This document shows, one piece after another, positions 5,011 through 61,846 of a stretch of 64,000 nt of DNA (the first letter of the stretch is position 1; each line of letters opens with the position of its first letter). The position numbers were made by a program, and so were the translations under genes. This stretch comes from an uncultured Alphaproteobacteria bacterium. GTDB taxonomy: Bacteria; Pseudomonadota; Alphaproteobacteria; Rs-D84. The DNA lies in NCBI GenBank assembly GCA_934230415.1, contig CAKQEW010000004.1, positions 1,445-65,444 on the forward strand, in the 5' to 3' direction. A model generated the notes under the pieces. That model ran no database searches and was not told where the DNA came from. It saw only the letters and a program-made list of their open reading frames with translations.

Positions 5011-6010
5011 ATTTAATCAGTTTTCCCATCGCCACGGCGGTGTCGCCCATACGGTTAGAGAATCCCCATTCGTTATCGTACCATGCGGTCACATGAACCA
5101 GCTTGTCGCCCAGGACCTTGGTCTGGCCGGCGTCAAAGATGGAACTGTGTGCATCGTGTGTAAAGTCAATGGAAACCAATGGCAATTCGTTGTATCCGAA
5201 TGTCTTGGACTGGGCGGCGCGCATTGCGTTGTTAACCGCGTCAACGGTGGCATCGCGTTCCAGATTTACAACCAATTCAACGACCGATACATCCGGTGTT
5301 GGTACACGAATCGCCATACCGTCCAATTTCCCGGCCAGTTTTGGCAGAACCAGACCAATCGCCTTGGCCGCGCCGGTGCTGGTTGGAATCATAGACAGGT
5401 TCGCGGCGCGTGCGCGACGGAAATCCTTGTGATTCTTGTCCAACAATTGCTGGTCACCGGTGTATGCATGTACGGTTGTCATCCATCCCGATACGATGCC
5501 GAACGTATCGTCCAGAACCTGGGCCACTGGGGCCAGGCAGTTCGTTGTGCATGACGCGTTTGAAACAATCAGGTCGGTTGGTTTCAGGGTGTCTTGGTTT
5601 ACACCGTACACGATTGTGGCATCCGCGCCCGCCGATGGGGCCGATACCAAAACGCGTTTCGCACCCGCATCCAGGTGAACGCGCGCCTTGTCCGCCGCGG
5701 TAAAGATACCGGTGCATTCCATAACAATATCAATGTCCAATTCGCGCCATGGCAATTTTGTCGGGTCTTTTTCCGCGATGCATTTAATTTTCTGGTCACC
5801 AACGATGATATATTCGCCGTCCAATTTAACATCCATTGGTAATTTCCCATGCACGGAATCATACTGCAACAGGTATGCATTCTGTTCCGCCGGGGCCAAA
5901 TCATTTACGGCCACAAATTCAATATCATCACGTTTTGATTCCAACGCCGCGCGCAGTACCAGGCGACCGATGCGTCCGAATCCGTTAATTGCAACTCTAA
6001 TCTTTGACAT
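5009..6010 (-). CDS. gap: Glyceraldehyde-3-phosphate dehydrogenase, type I
   Basis: N-terminal INGFGRIGR, catalytic SNASCTTNCLAP, C-terminal WYDNEWGFSNR. Confidence 0.95.
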   Translation of the reverse strand: MSKIRVAINGFGRIGRLVLRAALESKRDDIEFVAVNDLAPAEQNAYLLQYDSVHGKLPMDVKLDGEYIIVGDQKIKCIAEKDPTKLPWRELDIDIVMECTGIFTAADKARVHLDAGAKRVLVSAPSAGADATIVYGVNQDTLKPTDLIVSNASCTTNCLAPVAQVLDDTFGIVSGWMTTVHAYTGDQQLLDKNHKDFRRARAANLSMIPTSTGAAKAIGLVLPKLAGKLDGMAIRVPTPDVSVVELVVNLERDATVDAVNNAMRAAQSKTFGYNELPLVSIDFTHDAHSSIFDAGQTKVLGDKLVHVTAWYDNEWGFSNRMGDTAVAMGKLIK

Positions 6011-8325: not shown

Positions 8326-10530
8326 ATGTTTAACGCAGGCGATATTGTCAAAGTTTTAATACCGAATGTTGTCAATGCCGGGTATGATTACCGGCTGACG
8401 GCGCCTGTGGATTTGGGGCAATTTGTGGCATGCCGTGTTATGAACCGACCATATATTGGCGTTGTGTGGGGTGTTGGGGATTCTGGATTGCCGGCGGATA
8501 AAATCAAAGATATATCGGATGTGTATGATGCGCGTCTGCCTGTTTCGGATTTACAGTGGATTGCAAAAATGTCTGGGTGGACACTGATGACGCCGGGTGC
8601 GGTGTTGCGACTGATTGTAAATGTGCCAGATGCGTTTTTGCCACCAAAAATGGAACCGTTATATGGCCTGAATATCACAGATGGCGTCCGCATGACCGCC
8701 CCGCGCCAGGCGGTTTCGGATGCATTTGCGTCAAACGACGGTGACCCAATGTCAGTCGCCGACATTCAAAATATCGCACACGTCAGTTCGTCTGTGGTTC
8801 GTACAATGATAGGTCAGGGGATACTCGTGCCCAGAGAGCAGAGAGCAAAGAGCAGAGAGCAATGTGCCCCCGTATATCACGATTGTGGTAACATAAAATT
8901 AAATACCGAACAACAATCGGCGGCGGATACGATTGGTGCGGCGATTGATGCGGGTGGTTTTTCTGTGTTTTTGCTGGATGGCATCACGGGCAGTGGTAAA
9001 ACCCAGGTTTATTTTGATGCTGCATGGCGCGCATATTCGCGCGGGGCATCTGTATTACTGATGATGCCAGAAATCGCACTGACGGCGCAATTTATGCACC
9101 GGTTTACGGCACGATTTGGTGCTGCGCCCGTTGTGTGGCACAGCAATTTAACCGCGGCGCGTCGGCGTGAAATCTGGCGTGGGGTGTTGCGTGGCGAAAT
9201 TCGTATGGTCGTTGGCACGCGCAGTGCGCTGTTCCTGCCGTGGCAAAATCTGGGGCTGATTGTCGTGGACGAAGAACACGATACATCATATAAACAGGAA
9301 GATATGGGTAACTATCATGCGCGTGATATGGCGGTACTGCGTGCGAAAATCGCCGGATTCCCCGTCGTGTTGGCCAGTGCGACGCCCGCGGCGGAAACGT
9401 TACAGAATACCCAATCAGGTAAATATAAGTTGCTGCGCCTGACGTCACGATTTGGTGGTGCGCAAATGCCAACAATTGAAACGATTGATTTGCGTGAAAA
9501 TCGGCCGGACGCGTATTGTGTGTCAAATGATGCGGACGCCGCGCCCCAGAATGGGTGCCTGTCGGCGCCGATGTGCGCGGCGATTTCTGATACATTGTCC
9601 CAGCATCGCCAGGTAATGTTGTTTATAAATCGGCGCGGATTTGCACCAATTGTTCAGTGTAAAAAATGTGGTTGGGTTGCCCAGTGTCCTGATTGCAGCG
9701 TCAGCATGACATACCATCGTGCGGTGGGTAAATTACTGTGTCATATGTGTGGGCGTACCGCACCAATGCCGACCCGGTGTCCCGATTGTGGTGGTGATGT
9801 ATCCATGCGTGGCGCGGGCCTGGAAAAGATAGCAGAAGAGGTGTCCGTCCGTTTCCCAGCGGCGCGTGTGGCATTGGTATCCAGTGATACGATTTCATCG
9901 CGCCAGGCATTGGAACGCATGGTCACGAAAATGGAAAATGGCGAAATAGATATCGTTATCGGCACCCAGATTCTGGCCAAGGGGCACCATTTTCCGAATC
10001 TGACATTGGTTGGCGTGGTTGATGCCGATATGGGGCTGTTTGGGACAGATTTCCGTGCCGCCGAACACACGTTTCAGCAATTATTCCAGGTCGCCGGTCG
10101 TGCCGGTCGTGGCGAATTTCCGGGGCGGGTGTTACTGCAAACGTATCAACCGGACCATCCGGTCCTGCGTGCGATATGTGCGGGTGACCGTGATGCGTTT
10201 ATGGCATCTGATATGGCGTCGCGTCGTGCGGCGGGAATGCCCCCGTTTGGGCAATTGATTGCGGTGATTGTGGAATGCCAGCGCGAAGACGCGCTGAAAA
10301 AATATTGTGCCGCATTGGCGGCGGCCGTGCCGAACGCGGCGGGCGTAAAAATCATGGGGCCAATCGCGGCGGGCGTGTACCAAATCAGAAACTGGTATCG
10401 TATGCGGTTCCTGGTCGTGGGCGGGGCGACAACATTATTACAACCGGTCGTTGCACATTGGTTGCGCGCGGTGCGCGCCCCCGCCAACATTCGGGTCAAG
10501 GTTGACGTGAACCCGCAAAACTTTATGTAA
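8326..10530 (+). CDS. priA: Primosomal protein N' (replication restart helicase)
   Basis: Walker A GITGSGKTQVY, DEEHD box, Cys-rich zinc region CKKCGW..CPDC..CHMCG..CPDCG, helicase motif VI QVAGRAGRG. Confidence 0.92.
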   Translation: MFNAGDIVKVLIPNVVNAGYDYRLTAPVDLGQFVACRVMNRPYIGVVWGVGDSGLPADKIKDISDVYDARLPVSDLQWIAKMSGWTLMTPGAVLRLIVNVPDAFLPPKMEPLYGLNITDGVRMTAPRQAVSDAFASNDGDPMSVADIQNIAHVSSSVVRTMIGQGILVPREQRAKSREQCAPVYHDCGNIKLNTEQQSAADTIGAAIDAGGFSVFLLDGITGSGKTQVYFDAAWRAYSRGASVLLMMPEIALTAQFMHRFTARFGAAPVVWHSNLTAARRREIWRGVLRGEIRMVVGTRSALFLPWQNLGLIVVDEEHDTSYKQEDMGNYHARDMAVLRAKIAGFPVVLASATPAAETLQNTQSGKYKLLRLTSRFGGAQMPTIETIDLRENRPDAYCVSNDADAAPQNGCLSAPMCAAISDTLSQHRQVMLFINRRGFAPIVQCKKCGWVAQCPDCSVSMTYHRAVGKLLCHMCGRTAPMPTRCPDCGGDVSMRGAGLEKIAEEVSVRFPAARVALVSSDTISSRQALERMVTKMENGEIDIVIGTQILAKGHHFPNLTLVGVVDADMGLFGTDFRAAEHTFQQLFQVAGRAGRGEFPGRVLLQTYQPDHPVLRAICAGDRDAFMASDMASRRAAGMPPFGQLIAVIVECQREDALKKYCAALAAAVPNAAGVKIMGPIAAGVYQIRNWYRMRFLVVGGATTLLQPVVAHWLRAVRAPANIRVKVDVNPQNFM

Positions 10531-10778: not shown

Positions 10779-11567
10779 ATGTTTGCAAAAAAATTACTTA
10801 TACCAATAATGATTTTGGCGTTGTCGCCGGCATTTGCCGCGAATTGCGAGGTTTCATTGATAGAGACAACCGATGCCAGCACGACCGGTATTACAAACTG
10901 CATCAATGGTGAATTATACCAATTTGGCAGCAATGTGTTTGAATCATGTCTGGATTGTAAACCTGGTGTCAAGAGCATAGAAACAACATACGTATCCAGC
11001 AGTTGCAACCAATCCACAACACGGGTAATTTGCGCCACCACATGCACATCGGAATTGGGCGCCGAAACCAGCACGGTTGGATGCGACCTGGCCGAGGTAT
11101 ATAATTTTGGTGGCGGGTCGTACACAACGTGCAAACAATGCTCAAATGGATATAAGGCCCAAACCGACACGTACACGGATTTACAGTGCACAAACACTGT
11201 GACGTATACCAAATGCGTGGTTGACCCGACTGCCGAATGTACCGATGATTCTGATTGTGATGATGTCCTAGAGACGCCTGATTCCACTGGGCGTGCCCTG
11301 GCACGGACGGGTGGATATTGCAGTGGCGGTGAATGTGCATATCAGGATGAATATTATGTCTGTGTGGCCGGTTATTATGGCAATGGTGAAACATGTACAA
11401 AATGCCCCGCCAGTGCCGATGGCGCGACCGTGACGACGTTCTTTGAAACGACACCGACCTTGTCGTGGACCACAGATGTTCGTGGGTGCTTTATTGCCAA
11501 GGATACCACGGGAACCGACACGGCGGGTTCATTTATATATGAAAACAAGTGCAGTTATTCAGAATAA
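10779..11567 (+). CDS. Secreted cysteine-rich repeat protein (CxxC / furin- or TNFR-like repeats)
   Basis: Signal peptide ...LALSPAFA. About 30 Cys occur in recurring C-x2-C..GY contexts (CLDCKPG, CKQCSNGY, CTKCPAS). Confidence 0.7.
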   Translation: MFAKKLLIPIMILALSPAFAANCEVSLIETTDASTTGITNCINGELYQFGSNVFESCLDCKPGVKSIETTYVSSSCNQSTTRVICATTCTSELGAETSTVGCDLAEVYNFGGGSYTTCKQCSNGYKAQTDTYTDLQCTNTVTYTKCVVDPTAECTDDSDCDDVLETPDSTGRALARTGGYCSGGECAYQDEYYVCVAGYYGNGETCTKCPASADGATVTTFFETTPTLSWTTDVRGCFIAKDTTGTDTAGSFIYENKCSYSE

Positions 11568-43240: not shown

Positions 43241-43316
43241 GGGGACATAGCTCAGTTGGTAGAGCAAATGACTTTTAATCATTGGGTCCAGGGTTCGAGT
43301 CCCTGTGTCCCCACCA
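43241..43316 (+). tRNA. tRNA-Lys (anticodon UUU), CCA encoded
   Basis: GGGGACATAGCTCAGTTGGTAGAGC, anticodon loop CTTTTAA, T-loop TTCGAGT, acceptor TGTCCCC-A-CCA. Confidence 0.95.
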
Positions 43317-44151: not shown

Positions 44152-44231
44152 AATACCAAATGTGTGAAAAAACGTGTTGACTTTATATTGCGATACTGCT
44201 ACTGTTCGCAGGATGCAATTAAGGTTGTAAT

Positions 44232-46004
44232 ATGCAGGATTTGCCACAAACCGTTTCTGTGTTTTATATTCGCAGGTTTTGGAGGTATGCAGGTTGTGTG
44301 GCGATTTTATTTTTACTGTTAACATTCATTGATTTGTTTGGTGTTGCACTGTTACCGTCGTTTTTCTTGCGGTATGTTGTTGGTGCGTTGGAAAATGCGC
44401 CCGCAGCATCGGCACTGCGGATTATTGTTCCGGTTGTTGTTGTGTGGTTGATTGTGCGCGGGGTAATGATTGGCGCGTCTGTATTGCGGTGGACTGTGTT
44501 TGATGGTTTTATCAAATATCGGACGAATAACAAGATATCCGCCGAATTATATGATTACGTGTTTCACCATAATATGGATTTCTATGCGAATTCAATGCCC
44601 GGAAAAATAGGCAGCCAGATAAACCAGGTTGCCGAAACATTCCCGGCGACAATATCGTTGTTGAGTGATGGGTTGGTATTGCTGACACTGTTTGTGGTGT
44701 CGTTTGTGGCGCTGTTCAGTATTGGGTGGCAATTTGCCGCATTGATTGTTGGCGTGATGGCGTTTCGTGTAATCTGGGGCGCGGTAACATATAAATATGC
44801 GATGCGTGCCGCGGCGGCGCGTGCCGGAGTTATGAATGCATTGCAGGGGCGCCTGTTGGATGCATTGTCAAATTTCCCGGTGGTAAAATTATTTGCACGT
44901 ACCCAGTATGAACAGCGCGCGGTTATGCCAGAACGCGCGGCGTTTGAGCGGGCGGGGCGATATGCAAATTACAAATCACGACTGTTCTGGGCACCGGGTA
45001 ATGTTGTTGTTGATTGGTTTGGGTTTGGAATGCTGATGTTGCTGTGTGGGTATATGTATGCGGCCGGCGCGGTTTCATTGGCAAATGTATCATTTGTATT
45101 GGCATTGTTTGACAGTCTGAGTGGTATGTCATTTAACCTGATTATGTTAATCAAAGAATTCGTGAATACGTGGGGCAATGCGGTTGGTTCATATAACGCG
45201 TTGGTTCAACCAATTGTGCTGCGTGACGCCCCAGATGCCACGGTATTGCACGTGCCACATGGTGATATTGAAATTCGCAATTTATCATTTAAGTATACCG
45301 ATAAAATGGTTCTGGAAAAACTGTCGCTGCATATTCGTGCGGGTGAACGTGTTGGCCTGGTCGGGTTCAGTGGCGCGGGCAAGACGACATTGGTTAATCT
45401 GATTATGCGCCTGTATGATCCAACAGACGGCGCAATCTTGATTGATGGCCGTGATATTCGCACGGTTACCCAGGATTCGTTGCATGAAAACATATCATTT
45501 ATTCCCCAAGAACCAACGATGTTTAACCGTACCATTGCCGATAACATTGCGTACGGTGCCCCTGGGGCGGATATGCGCCGGATTCGTGGCGCGGCACGTT
45601 TCGCGTCGGCCGATGAATTTATTATGCGTACCCCAGATAAATACCAGACGGTTGTCGGTGATCGTGGAATAAAACTGTCCGGGGGGCAGCGTCAGCGTAT
45701 CGCAATCGCACGTGCGTTATTGAAAAATGCGCCGATTTTGATTCTGGACGAGGCGACCGCCGCACTGGACAGTGAAACCGAGGCCACAATTCAGTCAAGT
45801 TTTGAAAAGTTAAGCCATAATCGCACAACGATTGTTATTGCGCACCGACTGTCAACACTGCGCAATATGGACAGAATTATCGTTTTGGATCATGGTCGTA
45901 TTTCAGAAATTGGAACACATCAACAACTGCTGCGCCGCAAGGACGGTATTTATAAACGCCTGTGGCAGATGCAGTCTGGTGGATTTGTCCCAGAAGACCA
46001 GTAG
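44232..46004 (+). CDS. ABC exporter, fused permease/ATPase (MsbA-like type)
   Basis: Six-TM N-domain. GFSGAGKTT, LSGGQRQRIAIARAL, ILILDEATAALD, IAHRLST. Confidence 0.9.
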   Translation: MQDLPQTVSVFYIRRFWRYAGCVAILFLLLTFIDLFGVALLPSFFLRYVVGALENAPAASALRIIVPVVVVWLIVRGVMIGASVLRWTVFDGFIKYRTNNKISAELYDYVFHHNMDFYANSMPGKIGSQINQVAETFPATISLLSDGLVLLTLFVVSFVALFSIGWQFAALIVGVMAFRVIWGAVTYKYAMRAAAARAGVMNALQGRLLDALSNFPVVKLFARTQYEQRAVMPERAAFERAGRYANYKSRLFWAPGNVVVDWFGFGMLMLLCGYMYAAGAVSLANVSFVLALFDSLSGMSFNLIMLIKEFVNTWGNAVGSYNALVQPIVLRDAPDATVLHVPHGDIEIRNLSFKYTDKMVLEKLSLHIRAGERVGLVGFSGAGKTTLVNLIMRLYDPTDGAILIDGRDIRTVTQDSLHENISFIPQEPTMFNRTIADNIAYGAPGADMRRIRGAARFASADEFIMRTPDKYQTVVGDRGIKLSGGQRQRIAIARALLKNAPILILDEATAALDSETEATIQSSFEKLSHNRTTIVIAHRLSTLRNMDRIIVLDHGRISEIGTHQQLLRRKDGIYKRLWQMQSGGFVPEDQ

Positions 46005-54183: not shown

Positions 54184-55743
54184 ATGAAGATTAGCAAAGT
54201 TCATATTCATAATATCTATTCAATCCAAGACGCAGAATTCACGCTGGCTGATTTTAACATGATGGTCGGTAAAAATGGTGTCGGCAAAAGCAATATATTG
54301 AATATCCTGAACGGATTTTTCCAGGGTGGGGCGCATTGCGGTCTGATGTGCCCGGGCATGGCGTATGCAAACAGCGCCCCCCAGGAACCATTGTGGATAG
54401 AGGTTGAATTGGACCTGACAGAATCTGAATTTGCCGCGTTGCCAGATGAATACCAGGCAATCCCGAACAAATTGCGCATTCGTAAAACAATCGCGAATGT
54501 AGAGGCCGTCCTGGCAGAATTGGCTAACGAACCGGGCGTTACCAATGTCCCAAATGAAACCAGCACACGCATTTATACGAAAAACGGCATGGTAAAATCA
54601 GACTATAAAATACCGTGCGATGTTGTCTTTGTTGCGCCGACAAATTATGGCCAATCGCAATTTATGGGTGAAAAAGCCCCCGACCAGGCGCAATTGGATT
54701 CGGCCGCCACAATACTGCACAGTTCGGATACCATGGTTCACCTGGATATAGAGGATATAAAAGATGTTGGTGCGGCGCACGCGCTGATTGGCATGCATGA
54801 ATTTGGAATGTCGCCAAACCAATCGTGGGTGAAAATGAGTTCTGGTGCCCAGCACGCCGGCCAAATATCCAGCGCGGCCACCAAGGCAAAAGACCCAAAT
54901 CGTCTGACATTATTGTTGTGTGATGAACCGGAAAATTCGCTGCACCCCAGTTACCTGTCGGCGGCGGCGGGGACATTGCGTAATTTTGCCAATCAGCCGA
55001 ATTGTCAGGTTGTTGTCACGACGCACAGTCCACAGTTGGTTGCAGAAAACGCGACCGATTTGACGAATATTATGCGCCTGGACAGGTATGATGGCGCAAC
55101 GCGCGTACACCAATATCCCGCAATTACCCAGGACAAGATTTATAATTTGACATTCCTGAATAACCTGGATCGTGCAAAAATGTTCTTCTCTGATCGTGTG
55201 ATTTTGGTAGAGGGTGAAACAGAAACCGCATTTTTCAACTATATGACAGAAAACAATCTGTTCCGAAATGAACCAACCCCAGAAAATGTCACGCTGGTTA
55301 ATTGCCAGGGCAAATTCTATATCAAATATTTCGCTGATATTTTGACACAATATGGTATTCCGCATACGACGCTGTGGGATTTGGATCGTGGCAAATACTC
55401 AACAGATAACGAAAACATATTGGGGTGTTTTAACGATTTGATGTCGGTTGGGTATTGTTTCTATGAAAGTATAGAACCGTTTTGCGGCATAACCAAGGTT
55501 CAAAACTTGCCGGCGCACGTGAACTTTATCCAGAAATATACCGATGGTACAATTGCCCAGAATAAACGTGACCAACTGGTCACGCTGTTCAGCAACCTGG
55601 TTCATGCGCCCGAAACACCCGAACCGGCGGTCGCGGACCCGGATTTTAAAACGGTGCAATCGTTTAAGCGGGTGCCAACAATTACCGCACAACCCGTTGC
55701 GCTGGGCCTGTATCGGGTAACATTGCGCGGCAAAACAAAATAG
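54184..55743 (+). CDS. OLD-family nuclease (ABC-type ATPase + Toprim)
   Basis: Walker A GKNGVGKSN, signature-like MSSGAQH, Walker B LLLCDEPENSLHP, TTHSP, Toprim ILVEGETETAFF and LWDLD. The last 9 codons lie in a 175-bp repeat. Confidence 0.8.
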   Translation: MKISKVHIHNIYSIQDAEFTLADFNMMVGKNGVGKSNILNILNGFFQGGAHCGLMCPGMAYANSAPQEPLWIEVELDLTESEFAALPDEYQAIPNKLRIRKTIANVEAVLAELANEPGVTNVPNETSTRIYTKNGMVKSDYKIPCDVVFVAPTNYGQSQFMGEKAPDQAQLDSAATILHSSDTMVHLDIEDIKDVGAAHALIGMHEFGMSPNQSWVKMSSGAQHAGQISSAATKAKDPNRLTLLLCDEPENSLHPSYLSAAAGTLRNFANQPNCQVVVTTHSPQLVAENATDLTNIMRLDRYDGATRVHQYPAITQDKIYNLTFLNNLDRAKMFFSDRVILVEGETETAFFNYMTENNLFRNEPTPENVTLVNCQGKFYIKYFADILTQYGIPHTTLWDLDRGKYSTDNENILGCFNDLMSVGYCFYESIEPFCGITKVQNLPAHVNFIQKYTDGTIAQNKRDQLVTLFSNLVHAPETPEPAVADPDFKTVQSFKRVPTITAQPVALGLYRVTLRGKTK

Positions 55744-55889
55744 CCCCCCGGCAGGTGTTCAAAATTCTTTGCCGCCCCGCATTTTGTACATGCAGATTTT
55801 GGTAAAAAAACTGACTCTCTACGACGTTTGCAGGATGTGTGTTTGACACAAAACAAAACCCCACCAATGGTGGGGTTAATCTTTGGCTC
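55715..55889. repeat. 175-bp direct repeat, copy 1 (OLD 3' end, intergenic region, 6 nt of the tRNA-Asn 3' end)
   Basis: Near-identical to 60618-60793; I counted 3 differences (C6 vs C7, C/T, T/G). Confidence 0.9.
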
Positions 55890-56033
55890 AGATGTATAAG
55901 CATATGTCGAACGCGCGATATCTTAGATTTACTTAGCTTGGGTAAAAGTATTGAAAAGATTTTGCAGCGTTATCCGGTATAAATCACGTAAACCCAGCAG
56001 CATTCAGGCAAAAAGGGCACCGAAGCAACCTAT

Positions 56034-56786
56034 TTGGCATTGTTCACACGTGATAAAGTGGGCGAACAGTGGATGCACGATAACGGCATTACAACCAAAA
56101 AATCTTGTGAAAGTCCTGATTTTATATTCGAAGTTCCGGGGCGGCCGACAATAGGTCTGGAAATCGTCAATTTTATTCAACCAAGTGACAAAAATTCCGC
56201 GACAATGCGATTGGAAAGAATTGCCAAGAAAATTGTTGCACATTTCAAACAAAAGGGTGTTCCATTGTCGTTATTGATAAATGTGTTTGACCCAAGGGAA
56301 TGGAGTGCGAAATGGTCGGACCATTTGGATGCTTGTGCAAATCCAGGTTTTGACCATTTGAATGCGTCCGATGATGAAATTAAATGTGCGTTTTTATCTG
56401 CGTTGGACCCCGAAACAATACCAGAGTTTGGAATAGTTAAAAAGTCAATCACGGTGAATGGCCAGACCTTTATTTTGAACGCCAGTCAAATGCACGCACC
56501 GCATACACATTATCACGTCAATAATATGGGGCGTTGCATTGAAGACCCGTTTGATGAAATCCAAACAATAATAGACGGTAAAAACAAGAAATTCCAATCA
56601 TACAAGGCCAATTGTGACGAATGCGATTTGTTAATTGTGGTCGATGGTGGATTTGTGCATTTGGACGACGAATTGAAAACATATCGGTTTGAGTCGGTGT
56701 TTAGAAATGTATTCTTTATGGATTTGTCGTTCGGGTGCAAGGTTATAAAACTGAACATACTGCCACCACGCAATGCACCGTGTTAA
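56034..56786 (+). CDS. Hypothetical protein (250 aa), possibly nuclease-fold; start uncertain
   Basis: ORF with non-ATG start; first ATG at 56073. SPDFIFEV...IGLEIV is weakly PD-(D/E)xK-like. Confidence 0.45.
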   Translation: MALFTRDKVGEQWMHDNGITTKKSCESPDFIFEVPGRPTIGLEIVNFIQPSDKNSATMRLERIAKKIVAHFKQKGVPLSLLINVFDPREWSAKWSDHLDACANPGFDHLNASDDEIKCAFLSALDPETIPEFGIVKKSITVNGQTFILNASQMHAPHTHYHVNNMGRCIEDPFDEIQTIIDGKNKKFQSYKANCDECDLLIVVDGGFVHLDDELKTYRFESVFRNVFFMDLSFGCKVIKLNILPPRNAPC

Positions 56787-56987
56787 TTCCCCCATTATAC
56801 CACCCATATACAGCCCCCAATACAGGTCACATCATTATATCACCCATATACCCCAACAATCCCCCCACCCCCCGGGTGAAGTAAGAAAAAGCCAAAAACA
56901 ATGGTTTTTTACTTCCCAAAACTTACAAATATGAATATAATCTGTTATAATATGAACATTAACTGTTAAATATAAAGAGTGTGTGCG

Positions 56988-57458
56988 ATGGCAAAAGTAG
57001 CAAAAACCAAAGAAGAAACCCTGGAAACGATATTGTTCAATTGTCGCAATCATTTGCGTGGTCGTGCACCTATGACGGACAAACGTGATTTGTTGCTGAC
57101 ATTGGTGTTCTTGAAATTTATCGGTGACCGGTTTAAAGACCAACAGGACAAAATCCGTGAAACCGAAGAAGCGGGGTTTGTTGAAATGGCGTTAAAGACC
57201 CCAAGTTTTTATACCAAGGACGGTGTGTTCTTTTTGTCGGATGATTGTTTTTGGGATAAACTGATATTGAAACTGGCCAAGGGTCGCACAACCATCGCCA
57301 TTGCACACCGCTTATCAACCTTGCGTAACATGGACAGAATTATTGTGATGGATCATGGGCATATCATTGAATCTGGCACACATCAATCGTTATTACGCAA
57401 GAAAGGCCACTATGCGAAATTGTGGAAGATGCAATCCGGTGGATTCTTACAGGAATAA
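56988..57458 (+). pseudogene. Chimeric remnant: type I R-M HsdM N-terminal domain fused to an ABC-exporter C-terminus
   Basis: aa 1-95 match HsdM_N (LRGRAPMTDKRDLLLTLVFLKFIGDRF...FYTKDGVFFLSDDCFW). aa ~100-159 match the ABC ATPase tail ([47 protein letters not shown]). Confidence 0.75.
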
Positions 57459-57467
57459 GGAGCAGAC

Positions 57468-58478
57468 ATGAAACATACAGATGAACAAATAATTGCTACA
57501 GTGCGCAAAATCTTGGACATTTTACACGATCCGGACAATGGTTTTAATGCTTTTCGTAAGGAACTTCGGGAACAACACCTGAAAAAAGATGAATACGAAC
57601 AACGTATCGTTGATAAAGAATATGAATTGGCGGAAAAGTATGGTTTAACAAAAAACGACAATAGAGATGAAATAAAATTCCGCCTTACTGGTAAAGATGT
57701 TATGGATAGCCATCTGTATGTATCTTGTGGTCAGGCGGCTAAGGCGTTTTGTTATGTAAATTCACAATTACCAAAGGAAGAACAGTTAGATTTAAGGGTT
57801 TTGTTCAGTACGGATGTTGAACACCTTATTGATGCAAAAGAAGGTCATACTTTACCATGTGTAAAATTATCAGATGGCAAATGGCATGCAATAGAACCAC
57901 AAATTCAGCCAGAAAAAGATAAACAGCCAGGATTCAATTTTGTATGTGATGATGTAAAAGTTGATGGTGAAATATGGCACCAATTGGAATCTATTAAAAA
58001 GAAGGGTCGGCCATATCAGATAACAAAAATTGTGACACCAGAAGAACACGCAACAACATATTCCGATTTTGGAAAGTTTTTAGATGCATCCATGGTACAC
58101 AAAGGCAAGCTAAGCTTTGTATGTTCAACACTTAAACTGATATTACAAGACAAAAATCCAGGACAATATAAAAACAGCAAACGTCAAATTTATGAAATTT
58201 GCAAAGCCTTGGACGGAAAGAATGCAGCGGTAAAAGTGTGGATCTTCACTAGGGGGGAAGATATAGCGTGCAGAATTGGTATTGAAGACGATGGTGTATG
58301 TTACGACATGAACCCAACTGTACAATACCTGTCTTTGAGAAAGGTTGTTGGCAATGATTTCGCGTTCAATGAACCTGGCTTTAAATTAACACAAACACTG
58401 ACCCCAGAAGAATATGTCCAAGAATTTGAAAAGCGCGTTCAAACAATGGTGAATATAAACAACGAAGTAAGAGAATAA
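57468..58478 (+). CDS. Hypothetical protein (336 aa), first gene of an island operon
   Basis: AGGAGCAGAC RBS; AT-rich codon usage; no P-loop or other motif recognised. Confidence 0.6.
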   Translation: MKHTDEQIIATVRKILDILHDPDNGFNAFRKELREQHLKKDEYEQRIVDKEYELAEKYGLTKNDNRDEIKFRLTGKDVMDSHLYVSCGQAAKAFCYVNSQLPKEEQLDLRVLFSTDVEHLIDAKEGHTLPCVKLSDGKWHAIEPQIQPEKDKQPGFNFVCDDVKVDGEIWHQLESIKKKGRPYQITKIVTPEEHATTYSDFGKFLDASMVHKGKLSFVCSTLKLILQDKNPGQYKNSKRQIYEICKALDGKNAAVKVWIFTRGEDIACRIGIEDDGVCYDMNPTVQYLSLRKVVGNDFAFNEPGFKLTQTLTPEEYVQEFEKRVQTMVNINNEVRE

Positions 58479-58569
58479 TTGTACGAAAATGGTCATAATT
58501 CATAAAAATAAGAAAAAGGATTACAATAATGCATGAGCTTAACAAGGATATTAGCAATCAAAAATAACC

Positions 58570-59913
58570 ATGGCAACAGGTAATTTCATATTTAAATTTA
58601 AAAAAGAGCCATCAGCAAGAGCGGTTGCTGATAATGTAATTCGGGTTCCGAATCTTGATGATAAAACTGTACAGTTTGGTGCGCATGATTTTGTTTTAAA
58701 TGGGGATGCGTCTGGCGTAGATATTTCAAATGCGGGGGATTTAATAAAATATATGCGTTTTAGTAATGAAACAACGTTCCCAACAACCGATAAAATGCCC
58801 GAAGGGTTTAATCCAGAACAAGTGCTACAAGACGGTATAAATCCAGGATTGCATATAGATGATTTACATGCCGCCGGCATTACTGGTAAAGGTATAACGG
58901 TAGCAATCATAGACCAAGCATTAAATACGGAACATGTCGAGATAAAAGACAATATTGTTCATTATGAGTCTATTGGTTATCCTGAAAATAAAACGGCAGA
59001 TTATCATGGTACGGTTGTATCCAGTTTGTTGGCTGGCAAAACACTGGGGGTTGCACCAGAGGCAAAGGTTGTATATTTCGCTGCAACCAATGTGAAAGAT
59101 GTTTCGGAAAAGTTATTTGCAGATCCAGAAATCAAAGAGGCAGTATCAAAACATCTGCCAGATAATGTAAAATATGACGATTTTGTCGCAGATATCAAAA
59201 ACAAGAAACACGTCACCGATAAAGCGTTTCAACAATTGATTCGCGATTTGATGCAACAATTACCACCAGCAATCGTAAAACGTATAGAAAACGGAACGCG
59301 TGAAGTTTGTTTCGAGAATTATGCATCGGCATTACGTAAGATATTGTTTATGAATGCCAGACTGCCAAAAGATAAAAAGATATCTGCGGTGTCAATAAGT
59401 TGGGGAATGTTGCACGAAGATCCAGAAAGCACAAAATTGATAAAAATGTTGATAGAAAGTGGTGTAATGGTATTAACCACAGACTCTTACAGGTTTTACG
59501 ATAAAAATGCGGCATTTACTACGATAGACAGAAAAATGAATTCTGATGCCAATGATGTAGAATCTTATGATGCTGGTTTCTGGAAGAATTATAAAGGACA
59601 AGACGAAAACAAGTTGTTAGTCCCAGCTGGTGGCAGAACAATTGCTGGATTCTATGACAACACTCAGTATATTTATAGTGGTGTGAATGCGGGTATGTCT
59701 TGGGCGACACCGTATTTAGTTGGTGTATATGCGCTGGCAAAGCAAGTAATGCCAACCTTGACACCAGAACATTTTTTTGCGGTTGCACATCAGGTTGGTG
59801 CTTCAAACGAAAAACTGGGCAATAATGTTGTTATTCAACCACAAAAAATCATCGAATATTTACAAAACGAAAACTTATTACAAAAACAAAATCTAGAAGC
59901 AAAAGGTAGATAA
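58570..59913 (+). CDS. Subtilisin-like serine protease (peptidase S8), no signal peptide
   Basis: Catalytic triad contexts VAIIDQAL (Asp), DYHGTVVSS (His), GMSWATPYLVG (Ser). Confidence 0.8.
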   Translation: MATGNFIFKFKKEPSARAVADNVIRVPNLDDKTVQFGAHDFVLNGDASGVDISNAGDLIKYMRFSNETTFPTTDKMPEGFNPEQVLQDGINPGLHIDDLHAAGITGKGITVAIIDQALNTEHVEIKDNIVHYESIGYPENKTADYHGTVVSSLLAGKTLGVAPEAKVVYFAATNVKDVSEKLFADPEIKEAVSKHLPDNVKYDDFVADIKNKKHVTDKAFQQLIRDLMQQLPPAIVKRIENGTREVCFENYASALRKILFMNARLPKDKKISAVSISWGMLHEDPESTKLIKMLIESGVMVLTTDSYRFYDKNAAFTTIDRKMNSDANDVESYDAGFWKNYKGQDENKLLVPAGGRTIAGFYDNTQYIYSGVNAGMSWATPYLVGVYALAKQVMPTLTPEHFFAVAHQVGASNEKLGNNVVIQPQKIIEYLQNENLLQKQNLEAKGR

Positions 59914-59914
59914 T

Positions 59915-60502
59915 ATGGACAAGTTTTATGAACTATTCAGACGAGATTTGAAAACACAACGTCTGGAATTGCGAGTCTTGAAAGCAACACCAGAGAACGC
60001 GAAATTGGTATGGGATGCAATCAAAGATGAAAACCCCGCGGATTTTAAGTATATAAATTGGACACCGAATTATAAAAAACCCTTGCCGGAAAGTTTAGAG
60101 GAGACCTTGGCACAAATGCAACAAGAGGAAAAATACGATGTTAATCCGAATGGTGCGGTTTGGTACGTGTTTCATAATGGAAAAATGATCGGACATCATG
60201 GTGTGTTTTATTTTGATAATAATAAATCTATGCAATCTGGGAATGAGTGGTTTGTAAAATCCGCACAGAAGAAAGGATTCAATCAAGAAATATGGTCTTT
60301 GTTAATAAAAATGGCGTTTGAGCAATTGGGGGCGAACAGAATAATGCGTCAATGTATGGCTAACAATGAGCAGTCTCAGAAATCAATTATGGGCAGCGGT
60401 TTTCATCTTGACGGGCGTATACGTGCATCAACACGCATGCCAGACGGCAGTTATATGGATCAGCTGGTATTTACAAAACTAGCCCAAGAATACGGTAAAT
60501 AA
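59915..60502 (+). CDS. GNAT N-acetyltransferase (RimJ/RimL-like)
   Basis: RLELRVLKATPENA...HHGVFYFD...KGFNQEIWSLLIKMAFEQLGANRIM. The start is 1 nt after the S8 stop. Confidence 0.75.
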   Translation: MDKFYELFRRDLKTQRLELRVLKATPENAKLVWDAIKDENPADFKYINWTPNYKKPLPESLEETLAQMQQEEKYDVNPNGAVWYVFHNGKMIGHHGVFYFDNNKSMQSGNEWFVKSAQKKGFNQEIWSLLIKMAFEQLGANRIMRQCMANNEQSQKSIMGSGFHLDGRIRASTRMPDGSYMDQLVFTKLAQEYGK

Positions 60503-60617
60503 AAGGATAGAAGAACATAGAATGCACGACTATTTAGAGAAACGTCTTATATACGGTGTTTTTATTGACAAATTATTTATTTTGTGTTAGTTTTGCGTTA
60601 TAACCTATATCAAAAAT

Positions 60618-60793
60618 GGGTAACATTGCGCGGCAAAACAAAATAGCCCCCCCGGCAGGTGTTCAAAATTCTTTGCCGCCCTGCATTTTGTACATGCAGA
60701 TTTTGGTAAAAAAACTGACTCTCTACGACGTTTGCAGGATGTGTGTTTGACACAAAACAAAACCCCACCAATGGTGGGGGTAATCTTTGGCTC
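60618..60793. repeat. 175-bp direct repeat, copy 2 (abuts and overlaps the tRNA-Asn 3' end)
   Basis: See copy 1. Contains the terminator hairpin ccccaccaatggtgggg serving tRNA-Asn. Confidence 0.9.
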
Positions 60794-60863
60794 GGGCAAC
60801 TGGACTCGAACCAGTGACATACGGATTAACAGTCCGTTGTTCTACCGACTGAACTATGCCCGA
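60788..60863 (-). tRNA. tRNA-Asn (anticodon GUU), CCA encoded
   Basis: Reverse complement TCGGGCATAGTTCAGTCGGTAGAACAACGGACTGTTAATCCGTATGTCACTGGTTCGAGTCCAGTTGCCCGAGCCA is a canonical cloverleaf. Confidence 0.95.
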
Positions 60864-61048
60864 ATAGCCCGCATATCTTATAATTTTTTTTTATGCATTT
60901 CAAGTGTTTTTTTCATTTGTTCCCAATTTGGTGGAATTATTATGGTGGGCAGTGCAATATCGGGCGTTTGTCCTGACAAAGTTGTTGATATTTGGCGGGC
61001 AGGTGTATAGCATTAATGTCACAAGGATTCAGAAACGCCGGGGGCAGC

Positions 61049-61846
61049 ATGATAAAAGATATCAGTTATTCTGCATATATTATTCCGGTGCGCGCCGGGC
61101 GCGTTGCGGTGTTGAAATATGGTGAAAATGGATACGGGCCAATCGGCGGGCGCCTGGACGCGGGTGAAGATTTTGATGCGGCACTGCGCCGTGAATTAAC
61201 AGAAGAACTGGGGCCATCAGCGGCAGATTTGGCGGACGCGGCGGTGGCTGTGCCGGTGCCATATGCATTTCGGCATGCAACGTATGCGCGTGCGTTGGCG
61301 CGCGGTGCGTTTGCCGAAGAACACCATTTCTATATCGTGCATATCGCGGATGATTGCACGCTGAATTTCTGTGAAAATCGTCCTGATTCGGTGTCGGTTG
61401 TTTGGGTTCGCCCGGATGATTTGCTGGCGCCGGAATATGTACCGATGTCCGATATGCGCGATTTTTATGCAACGCATGTGTTGCCAAACTTGGCGTGTCG
61501 GTTTTCAATCAGGTTGCGTCATACGTACTATGAAATGGTAACGTCTGGCCAGAAAGATATAGAACTGCGTCTGTATGATGAAAAGCGCCGCCAGATGCGC
61601 GCCGGTGATATTGTTTTAATCTGTGATGCGGAAAATCCATCTGATTATATCCGGTGCGAAATAGTGCATATGCACATTGCCCAGAGTTTTGCGAGCCTGG
61701 CCACACAAATAAATGTTCGGCGCATAGGATTTGATAACCTGGACCAGTTGACCGCGGCGGTATCAAAGTTCTATACCCCGGCCCAAGAGTCCAGGTACGG
61801 TGTCGTTGGCATTGAACTGAGGGTGCCGCAACCAAATAAAAATTGA
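61049..61846 (+). CDS. NUDIX hydrolase fused to an ASCH domain
   Basis: Nudix box GGRLDAGEDFDAALRRELTEELG. C-terminal YYEMVTSGQKDIELRLYDEKRRQMRAGDIVLI is ASCH-like. Confidence 0.65.
   Translation: MIKDISYSAYIIPVRAGRVAVLKYGENGYGPIGGRLDAGEDFDAALRRELTEELGPSAADLADAAVAVPVPYAFRHATYARALARGAFAEEHHFYIVHIADDCTLNFCENRPDSVSVVWVRPDDLLAPEYVPMSDMRDFYATHVLPNLACRFSIRLRHTYYEMVTSGQKDIELRLYDEKRRQMRAGDIVLICDAENPSDYIRCEIVHMHIAQSFASLATQINVRRIGFDNLDQLTAAVSKFYTPAQESRYGVVGIELRVPQPNKN

Follow-up and report, generated by a model that had tools for sequence, protein, structure and literature searches.

The 64,000-nt stretch of DNA analyzed here (the window; contig CAKQEW010000004.1) comes from an uncultured Alphaproteobacteria bacterium and contains a 4.7-kb insert between a gene of the OLD nuclease family and a tRNA-Asn gene, bounded on both sides by direct repeats of about 175 bp. 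The feature is a degenerate composite genomic island at a tRNA hotspot, a kind of structure that is already known, and a microhomology event produced its long flanking repeats as a side effect. The 4.7 kb is probably the remnant of several mobile islands stacked downstream of tRNA-Asn, a decayed composite devoid of any recombinase. The argument turns on the left junction of the insert, J1 (55889/55890), and its right junction, J2 (60617/60618), which are surrounded by the following features (related loci are denoted below by L numbers).

54184-55743, plus strand: OLD-family nuclease gene, 519 aa (Pfam AAA_15, AAA_21 and OLD-like_TOPRIM; PADLOC Old, 1.8e-43)
55715-55889 (175 nt): direct repeat copy 1, made up of the OLD 3' end (55715-55743), native intergenic DNA, a duplicate tRNA-Asn terminator and TGGCTC
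55884-55889, minus strand: displaced tRNA-Asn 3' hexamer GAGCCA (TGGCTC on the plus strand), the putative crossover core of J1
55890-56014, minus strand: conserved module (the unit) in truncated form, retaining the first ~125 of ~187 nt, with the anticodon-arm end deleted
56006-56014: joint a, where the unit meets the interior of a tyrosine-integrase island at a 9-nt microhomology, AGGCAAAAA, from a three-way comparison of the window, the unit of L047 and L076
56006-57282, plus strand: tyrosine-integrase island fragment with a 5'-truncated 275-aa gene (open reading frame, ORF, 56073-56786) and the first ~98 hsdM codons (from 56988)
57283-57458, plus strand: C-terminal fragment of an MsbA-like ABC exporter, ~62 codons and stop
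57454-60509, plus strand: three intact genes (Pfam), encoding a 336-aa protein (57468-58478), an S8/S53 peptidase-like protein (58570-59913) and a GNAT protein (59915-60502)
60555-60621, plus strand: promoter and ribosome-binding-site region of the 85-aa gene of a gene cluster, cut just before the start codon (alignment to L036, L037 and L038)
60618-60621: J2, where cargo and OLD 3' end meet at a 4-nt microhomology, GGGT
60618-60793 (176 nt): direct repeat copy 2, consisting of an orphan 29-nt OLD 3' end, the native intergenic stretch, the terminator and, as the genuine 3' end of the tRNA, TGGCTC
60788-60863, minus strand: intact tRNA-Asn(GTT), the integration target (ARAGORN; Rfam tRNA, 74 bits)

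The original prediction, made from the sequence of the window, had described two near-identical direct repeats with three differences, the first supplying the OLD 3' end and the second running with an orphan piece of it into the end of tRNA-Asn, and all of this was borne out by repeat search and pairwise alignment. One of the differing positions is a run of C (C6/C7) behind the OLD stop, and the other two are a C/T and a T/G substitution. Copy 1 takes in the final 29 nt of the OLD gene, and copy 2 contains the same 29 nt with no gene upstream. The overlap of the repeat with tRNA-Asn is limited to the last six nucleotides of the tRNA, which close both copies, and the terminator hairpin of tRNA-Asn is duplicated in copy 1 (55857-55877, minus strand); a related terminator adjoins tRNA-Asn in L019. 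The proposed ancestral layout, OLD converging on tRNA-Asn, also holds: OLD orthologues lie upstream of tRNA-Asn in two sister species (L018 and L019, 72-73% nucleotide identity). In L013, which comes from one sample, the third variant site of copy 2 is filled by T rather than G, in agreement with occasional gene conversion between the copies.

The insert DNA is foreign by composition. Its GC content is 38.2% versus 48% in the rest of the window, its GC content at third codon positions is 0.33 versus 0.50 in the flanks, and AGA and AGG account for 40% of its arginine codons versus 10% in the flanks. The AT-rich character and the codon bias claimed for the insert are thus confirmed; the GC content of ~60% that had been cited for priA as a contrast does not apply to the rest of the window. 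The reported absence of an integrase was likewise corroborated, since ORF scans, domain scans and tblastn revealed no integrase or recombinase ORF or remnant in 55890-60617, and the large serine recombinase (LSR) of L016 used as a tblastn query had no match anywhere in the window. An insertion sequence or transposon was considered and rejected, as terminal inverted repeats and a transposase are lacking. PADLOC found weak partial matches among the insert genes and no recognizable intact defence system, and NCBIfam and Pfam added nothing for the 237-aa product of the truncated gene and the 336-aa protein.

The arrangement is real. Short-read contigs from further samples (L003, L006, L014 and L015) end exactly at the repeat, as might be expected of a collapsed or duplicated repeat, and the original prediction had named an assembly artefact as a way in which it could fail. 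However, at least three assemblies (ERZ28614844, ERZ28614142 and ERZ27287326) span both copies and keep the copy-specific variants consistently; they come from different samples and assemblers, one of them being an ENA gut-metagenome scaffold identical to the window. Moreover, each of the two junctions has unique sequence on both sides. An artefact is hardly credible in view of these assemblies.

At J1 the native flank, closed by the tRNA terminal hexamer, meets a conserved module of ~187 nt, the unit. A 22-mer from this stretch has matches in 16 JGI metagenome contigs with unrelated flanks, and in an alignment of window positions 55884-56014 against 15 other loci the conservation of the unit stops exactly at TGGCTC in 15 loci, beside unrelated terminator hairpins. 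The copy of the window is 87% identical to L016:7776-7913, where the unit has inverted orientation. In L043, metK and a gene for a class II aminoacyl-tRNA synthetase come after the flank on the TGGCTC side of the unit. At its other end the unit carries 18 nt copied from the tRNA-Asn anticodon arm, beyond which several unrelated sequence classes occur; the window contains no second copy of the arm. As a separate observation, the unit is ~85-95% conserved across the 16 contigs (L040-L055), with a nearly invariant centre of ~55 nt. The idea that the unit is a structured RNA was not supported: there is no Rfam match at the gathering threshold in the window or L016, and RNAalifold on ten sequences gave 46 pairs with no compensatory changes. 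No promoter was found in the unit.

The counterpart of the unit in this recombination is apparently a family of LSRs, present in L016, L054 and L056-L066. The LSR of L016 (Resolvase, Recombinase and Zn_ribbon_recom domains) adjoins tRNA-Asn, its ORF running into the tRNA 3' end, and homologues with 77-87% identity adjoin tRNA-Asn via the same hexamer in nine loci from three lineages (L056-L063 and L066). In L054, a complete LSR 3' end is joined via TGGCTC to the unit. Consequently, with the junction of chromosomal tRNA flank, terminal hexamer and unit in the window, four junction combinations exist: the native flank and the LSR end are each found joined to the tRNA and to the unit. By comparison of the sequences, these would represent the classical signature of site-specific recombination with a crossover in the shared hexamer. 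A change of target is observed in the P0129 lineage, whose LSR (77% identical; L064:1900-2080 and L065:2180-2300) adjoins tRNA-Gln(CTG) rather than tRNA-Asn, and whose upstream unit ends in CCAACCA, matching the tRNA-Gln 3' end, instead of GAGCCA. This co-variation of the core is the strongest single support for a site-specific origin of J1. Because the four junction types exist and the core co-varies in the tRNA-Gln lineage, we interpret J1 as a putative attR-type attachment junction of element arm, core and native flank that an LSR element left behind, and the crossover inside the hexamer was presumably catalyzed by an LSR. The original prediction had excluded an integrase att core at this locus, which is correct for the 175-bp repeat and overlooks J1 itself, a site-specific junction at the tRNA hexamer that LSR-bearing islands of sister genomes and the 16 metagenome contigs have in common with the window; integration of the site-specific kind did therefore occur at the tRNA.

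J2 has a different anatomy. The donor-like sequence reads ...cataaaGGGGTggcatATG, the OLD gene ...ctgtatcGGGTaacattgcg and the window ...caaaaatGGGTaacattgcg, which makes J2 an illegitimate joint at GGGT. With cargo to its left and the OLD 3' end to its right, it has the polarity of a joint formed by tandem duplication or circle closure, not by deletion. The 175-bp repeat is the chromosomal stretch between the J2 breakpoint and J1 and not an attachment site. A longer decayed duplication, considered for a weak similarity of the sequence upstream of copy 2 to the OLD 3' end, was rejected, as this stretch is homologous to the promoter of the 85-aa gene.

The interior between these junctions was claimed to be a single added element. 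Instead, sequence comparison shows it to be a patchwork of at least four sources, with a microhomology at every joint. Window positions 56006-57282 are 98.4% identical to L076:2670-3950; the 237-aa ORF in this part is the 5'-truncated 275-aa gene, with 100% amino acid identity to protein P0241 over 237 aa, and the hsdM fragment has a Pfam HsdM_N match. L076 is a textbook complete tyrosine-integrase tRNA-Asn island of 12 kb, consisting of a displaced 50-nt tRNA-Asn 3' half, a P arm, a P4-like Int(Tyr), Fic, the 275-aa gene, HsdM, HsdS, HsdR, HTH_17 and the intact tRNA-Asn. Because an integrase 74% identical to that of L076 adjoins a complete unit in L043, an L076-like island probably integrated at the anticodon-arm copy of the unit, and a later deletion took this copy together with the integrase, Fic and the 5' part of the 275-aa gene.

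A chimeric ORF (56979-57458) results from the in-frame fusion of the hsdM fragment with the 3' end of the msbA-like gene. This ORF is an annotation trap, appearing as a 156-aa HsdM_N protein in the source assemblies. The MsbA fragment matches the NCBIfam MsbA profile at positions 515-570 only and shows 73% amino acid identity to the 3' end of the window's own exporter (45807-45995); it is joined ~10 nt upstream of the 336-aa gene (joints b and c). The block of three intact genes has 84-86% nucleotide identity to lower-GC relatives, L036 and L037 (39% GC) and L038 and L039 (36% GC), where it forms the start of a longer conserved gene cluster; in L038 the cluster adjoins a displaced 45-nt tRNA-Asn 3' half. 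The 240-aa gene that normally precedes the 85-aa gene of the cluster is deleted in the window. In a lower-GC relative (L036:3343-9809 and L037:704-7170), the gene order is the 336-aa gene, the S8 peptidase and GNAT genes, then genes for 240, 85, 251, 318 and 196 aa, and there the eight genes occupy an odd place for an insertion, within the ribosomal protein operon between rpsK (ribosomal protein S11) and rpoA.

The history that we propose for this structure, in which the order of events is deduced from the joints, begins with an LSR-family element that would have integrated by a crossover within the last 6 nt of tRNA-Asn (GAGCCA), joining the native tRNA flank to its ~187-nt end module and thereby making J1. 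The module, which carries the 18-nt anticodon-arm copy, would have had a P4-like tyrosine-integrase island (Int-Fic-275aa-HsdMSR) beside it, and further cargo would have been present, namely the foreign msbA 3' end and the cluster beginning with the 336-aa, S8 peptidase and GNAT genes. Serial deletions at microhomologies (9, ~2-4 and ~2 nt) may then have stripped both recombinases and most of the cargo. In a final illegitimate event at GGGT, the cargo would have been joined to a point 29 nt inside the OLD 3' end, 175 nt upstream of J1, which would leave the 175 nt twice and restore an intact native attB-like site beside the tRNA. For this last step we tentatively favour a GGGT-mediated tandem duplication reaching from the OLD 3' end into the cargo, after which a recombinase would have precisely excised the complete, distal copy and stranded the truncated one. 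The duplication route is preferred over one through a circle because every intermediate is chromosomal and heritable.

Several observations weigh against this history. The window lacks the predicted junction that would link an LSR 3' end through the hexamer to the tRNA body; its tRNA is adjoined by the native flank of copy 2. Neither an LSR nor any other recombinase is present in the window, none was found in this species, and the complete parental element, an integrated LSR element with the cargo, was not observed among the loci examined. Each LSR locus has a complete or truncated unit upstream of the LSR, inverted relative to the tRNA, and after this unit comes an inverted copy, 130-136 nt long, of the LSR 3' end. 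The inverted unit and inverted LSR 3' copy of the L016-type layout are not what a simple attP x attB model would predict, and the model was rejected for this layout. Finally, the duplication route and a Campbell-type route give the same product and are indistinguishable by sequence.

Campbell-type integration of a circular element was the explanation given in the original prediction. Spelled out, a 4.9-kb circle with one 175-bp segment, generated by aberrant, lambda-dgal-like excision at GGGT from a strain with the composite island, would enter the empty OLD-tRNA-Asn site by a RecA-dependent single crossover. The product equals the observed structure, and the polarity of J2 is exactly that of a circle joint formed by illegitimate excision between the OLD 3' end and the cargo. 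Copy divergence (1.7%) exceeds strain divergence (0.4-0.7%), which is compatible with copies from two strains. Contig L014 of the Logan collection forms a 4,934-nt cycle with a 30-nt end overlap; however, a de Bruijn graph would give such a cycle for any segment flanked by repeats. The repeats as shared homology and the one joint of circle polarity are both found, and tandem duplication predicts the same. On the other hand, the circle would lack replication and transfer functions, two rare events are required with no heritable intermediate, and alone this route leaves J1, a conserved site-specific junction, unexplained. The plasmid search and empty-site comparison suggested earlier gave it no support: the insert has no match in plasmids, phages or viral contigs (blastn), the unit 22-mer is absent from IMG/VR, and neither a bare OLD-repeat-tRNA site nor an excised form of the insert was found in exact-protein look-ups (OLD, HNH, NUDIX-ASCH and S8), the former in 16 contigs of the species. 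The original explanation is partly supported: it agrees with the repeats and the polarity of J2 and misses the site-specific J1, the illegitimate J2 and the mosaic insert. As the last step, we consider integration of a circle rather unlikely.

Homology-facilitated illegitimate recombination after DNA uptake could also produce a duplication, if a linear fragment from an island-bearing strain were anchored by homology in OLD or the intergenic stretch and its far end joined, on the "wrong" side of this anchor, at GGGT. This route would leave homology at one end and a microhomology joint at the opposite one, and the different alleles of the locus in strains 98-99.6% identical indicate that cassettes are exchanged between strains. 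Nevertheless, this mechanism usually deletes rather than duplicates recipient DNA, it presupposes competence of the host and needs two recipient copies or a replication fork, all of which makes it improbable. More improbable still is that the repeats are unusually long attachment sites of an integrase acting in trans on a mobilizable satellite island. The tRNA 3' end is indeed included in the repeat, and integrase-bearing islands use this tRNA in relatives, but the left end of the repeat is the GGGT joint inside a coding region, an anatomy of J2 that already contradicts an attachment site. Furthermore, the tyrosine-integrase islands here use a 45-50-nt anticodon-to-CCA repeat that is absent from the window, whereas the LSR junctions share 6-7 nt only. 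Compared with self-mobile tyrosine-integrase tRNA islands, the insert has the adjacency to the tRNA 3' end and the deviant composition and has neither the integrase nor repeats of the tRNA 3' segment; compared with LSR elements, it has the junction of flank, hexamer and unit and lacks both an LSR gene beside the tRNA and the junction of an LSR end with the tRNA. A decayed composite of stacked islands thus remains the preferred interpretation.

The related loci, with their LSR at a tRNA 3' terminus and pseudo-tRNA module, rather than the insert of the window, appear to hold the more novel material. The comparison exposes a serine-recombinase family apparently targeting tRNA 3' termini and, in these poorly known gut Alphaproteobacteria, a tRNA-Asn hotspot at which two recombinase classes use separate points of one tRNA. 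Reports of serine integrases generally place them outside tRNA genes. In a mycobacterial survey, 16 of 23 tyrosine-integrase attB sites overlapped tRNA or tmRNA genes, and no such overlap was mentioned for six serine-integrase sites (PMC10654092). The inverted repeats of the LSR loci consist of the LSR 3' coding end and the tRNA terminal hexamer; the identity between the two repeats of a locus is 100% in six loci and 95% in L016 (for example, L016:7900-8030 versus 9578-9708 and L056:9742-9871 versus 11428-11557; also L061-L065). Contigs often end at this repeat, and L054 looks like a flipped state. The sequences suggest that the LSR segment is invertible or that conversion is ongoing between its inverted repeats. 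It is possible, if somewhat doubtful, that these loci represent an apparently undescribed platform, in which the final 6-7 nt of tRNA-Asn, or of tRNA-Gln in one lineage, are the insertion site of an LSR family that supplies its own 3' end as the tRNA terminator and is bracketed by 130-136-nt inverted repeats, which may make the segment invertible, while the ~187-nt pseudo-tRNA module serves as a decoy attB for P4-like islands and nucleates defence islands; the insert of the window would then be its fossil.

The neighbouring ABC-F gene of the window has 84-92% identity to genes of metagenome-assembled genomes of uncultured gut Alphaproteobacteria (assigned to 'Rickettsiales' or Alphaproteobacteria) related to Ca. 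Enterousia. In every relative compared, the slot between the conserved HNH or OLD gene and tRNA-Asn has different content, and within the same species (98-99.6% nucleotide identity) there are at least three alleles at the locus:

L026, slot: small NUDIX gene
L018, slot: Schlafen/AlbA_2 protein
L019, slot: D12 methyltransferase, HNH_2 nuclease and AAA_15 ATPase
L016, slot: LSR, GmrSD, Dcm, a restriction-modification (R-M) system, Hypoth_Ymh and an OLD-like gene
Allele 1: the arrangement of the window
Allele 2 (L005): OLD, ASCH, HNH, tRNA
Allele 3 (L069): OLD, ASCH, HNH, DUF4357, AbiJ, KAP NTPase, R-M

Because the slot content differs in every relative and among strains, the region downstream of tRNA-Asn is an island and defence hotspot in this gut Alphaproteobacteria lineage. 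Other traces of rearrangement were observed around it. In L018, a 14-nt tRNA-Asn anticodon-arm fragment (L018:8050-8063) lies ~85 nt past the OLD stop in direct orientation with the tRNA; the two bracket the single Schlafen/AlbA_2 gene with no integrase, which looks like another decayed island there. On the 5' side of tRNA-Asn, the NUDIX-ASCH gene (61049-61846; window 60929-61835) is absent in L016 and L018 and represented by its NUDIX half only in L019, and a stand-alone ASCH gene occurs on the other side of the tRNA in L005 and L069. A flank of ~75 nt (…ggtatgcgtaaatac…gccgcaaacc.g.ggggtt..ggc…) adjoins tRNA-Asn in a human-gut strain (L005:3425-3497); the ggtatgcgtaaatac flank also adjoins the unit, as its left flank in L042, L046 and L047 and at L053:~5440-5490, and is either a native flank or an element arm. 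A second structural difference between strains was seen ~1 kb from tRNA-Lys (43241-43316), between window ~44184-45663 and L002:1-1491, where L002 has the 590-aa ABC exporter cut to a 188-aa fragment and a different arrangement of the neighbouring YoaP-type GNAT gene.

Among known systems, defence-island hotspots resemble this locus in that the same slot across strains and species holds OLD, R-M, GmrSD, DarTG, AbiJ, KAP NTPase, RloB with AAA_21 and a Schlafen-like protein; unlike them, the insert of the window has no recognizable intact defence system. With tRNA islands carrying P4-like tyrosine integrases, such as the Yersinia high-pathogenicity island at asn-tRNA, it shares its position directly downstream of tRNA-Asn, foreign composition, a hotspot cargo varying by strain and even a 1.28-kb fragment that is 98.4% identical to one such island (L076). 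It differs from them in having no integrase, in being a mosaic of several elements, and in its repeat, which consists of 6 tRNA nucleotides and 169 nt of downstream chromosome rather than an anticodon-to-CCA segment. In SCCmec, pseudo-SCC and the Enterococcus cassette chromosome, cassettes with LSRs (Ccr) occupy the 3' end of rlmH, often in tandem and often decayed with no recombinase. The LSR family described here similarly appears to act at the extreme 3' end of a conserved gene, with accumulation of cassettes, recombinase-less remnants and a short shared core. Its target, in contrast, is a tRNA 3' end and not rlmH, the LSR 3' end apparently supplies the tRNA flank, and the LSR is accompanied by a conserved pseudo-tRNA module and 130-nt inverted repeats of 95-100% identity.

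An apparent new homology-driven mobile unit therefore turns out to be the wreck of ordinary site-specific islands. Further parallels in structure are the aberrant excision and homology-dependent reintegration of lambda dgal and dbio, from which the insert differs by the absence of packaging and replication functions, and microhomology tandem duplications. As in these systems, there is one illegitimate joint between an element and the nearby chromosome, and the chromosomal stretch between the attachment junction and the illegitimate breakpoint is duplicated. One microhomology join can yield long perfect-looking flanking repeats, which should not be taken as a mechanism of mobility.

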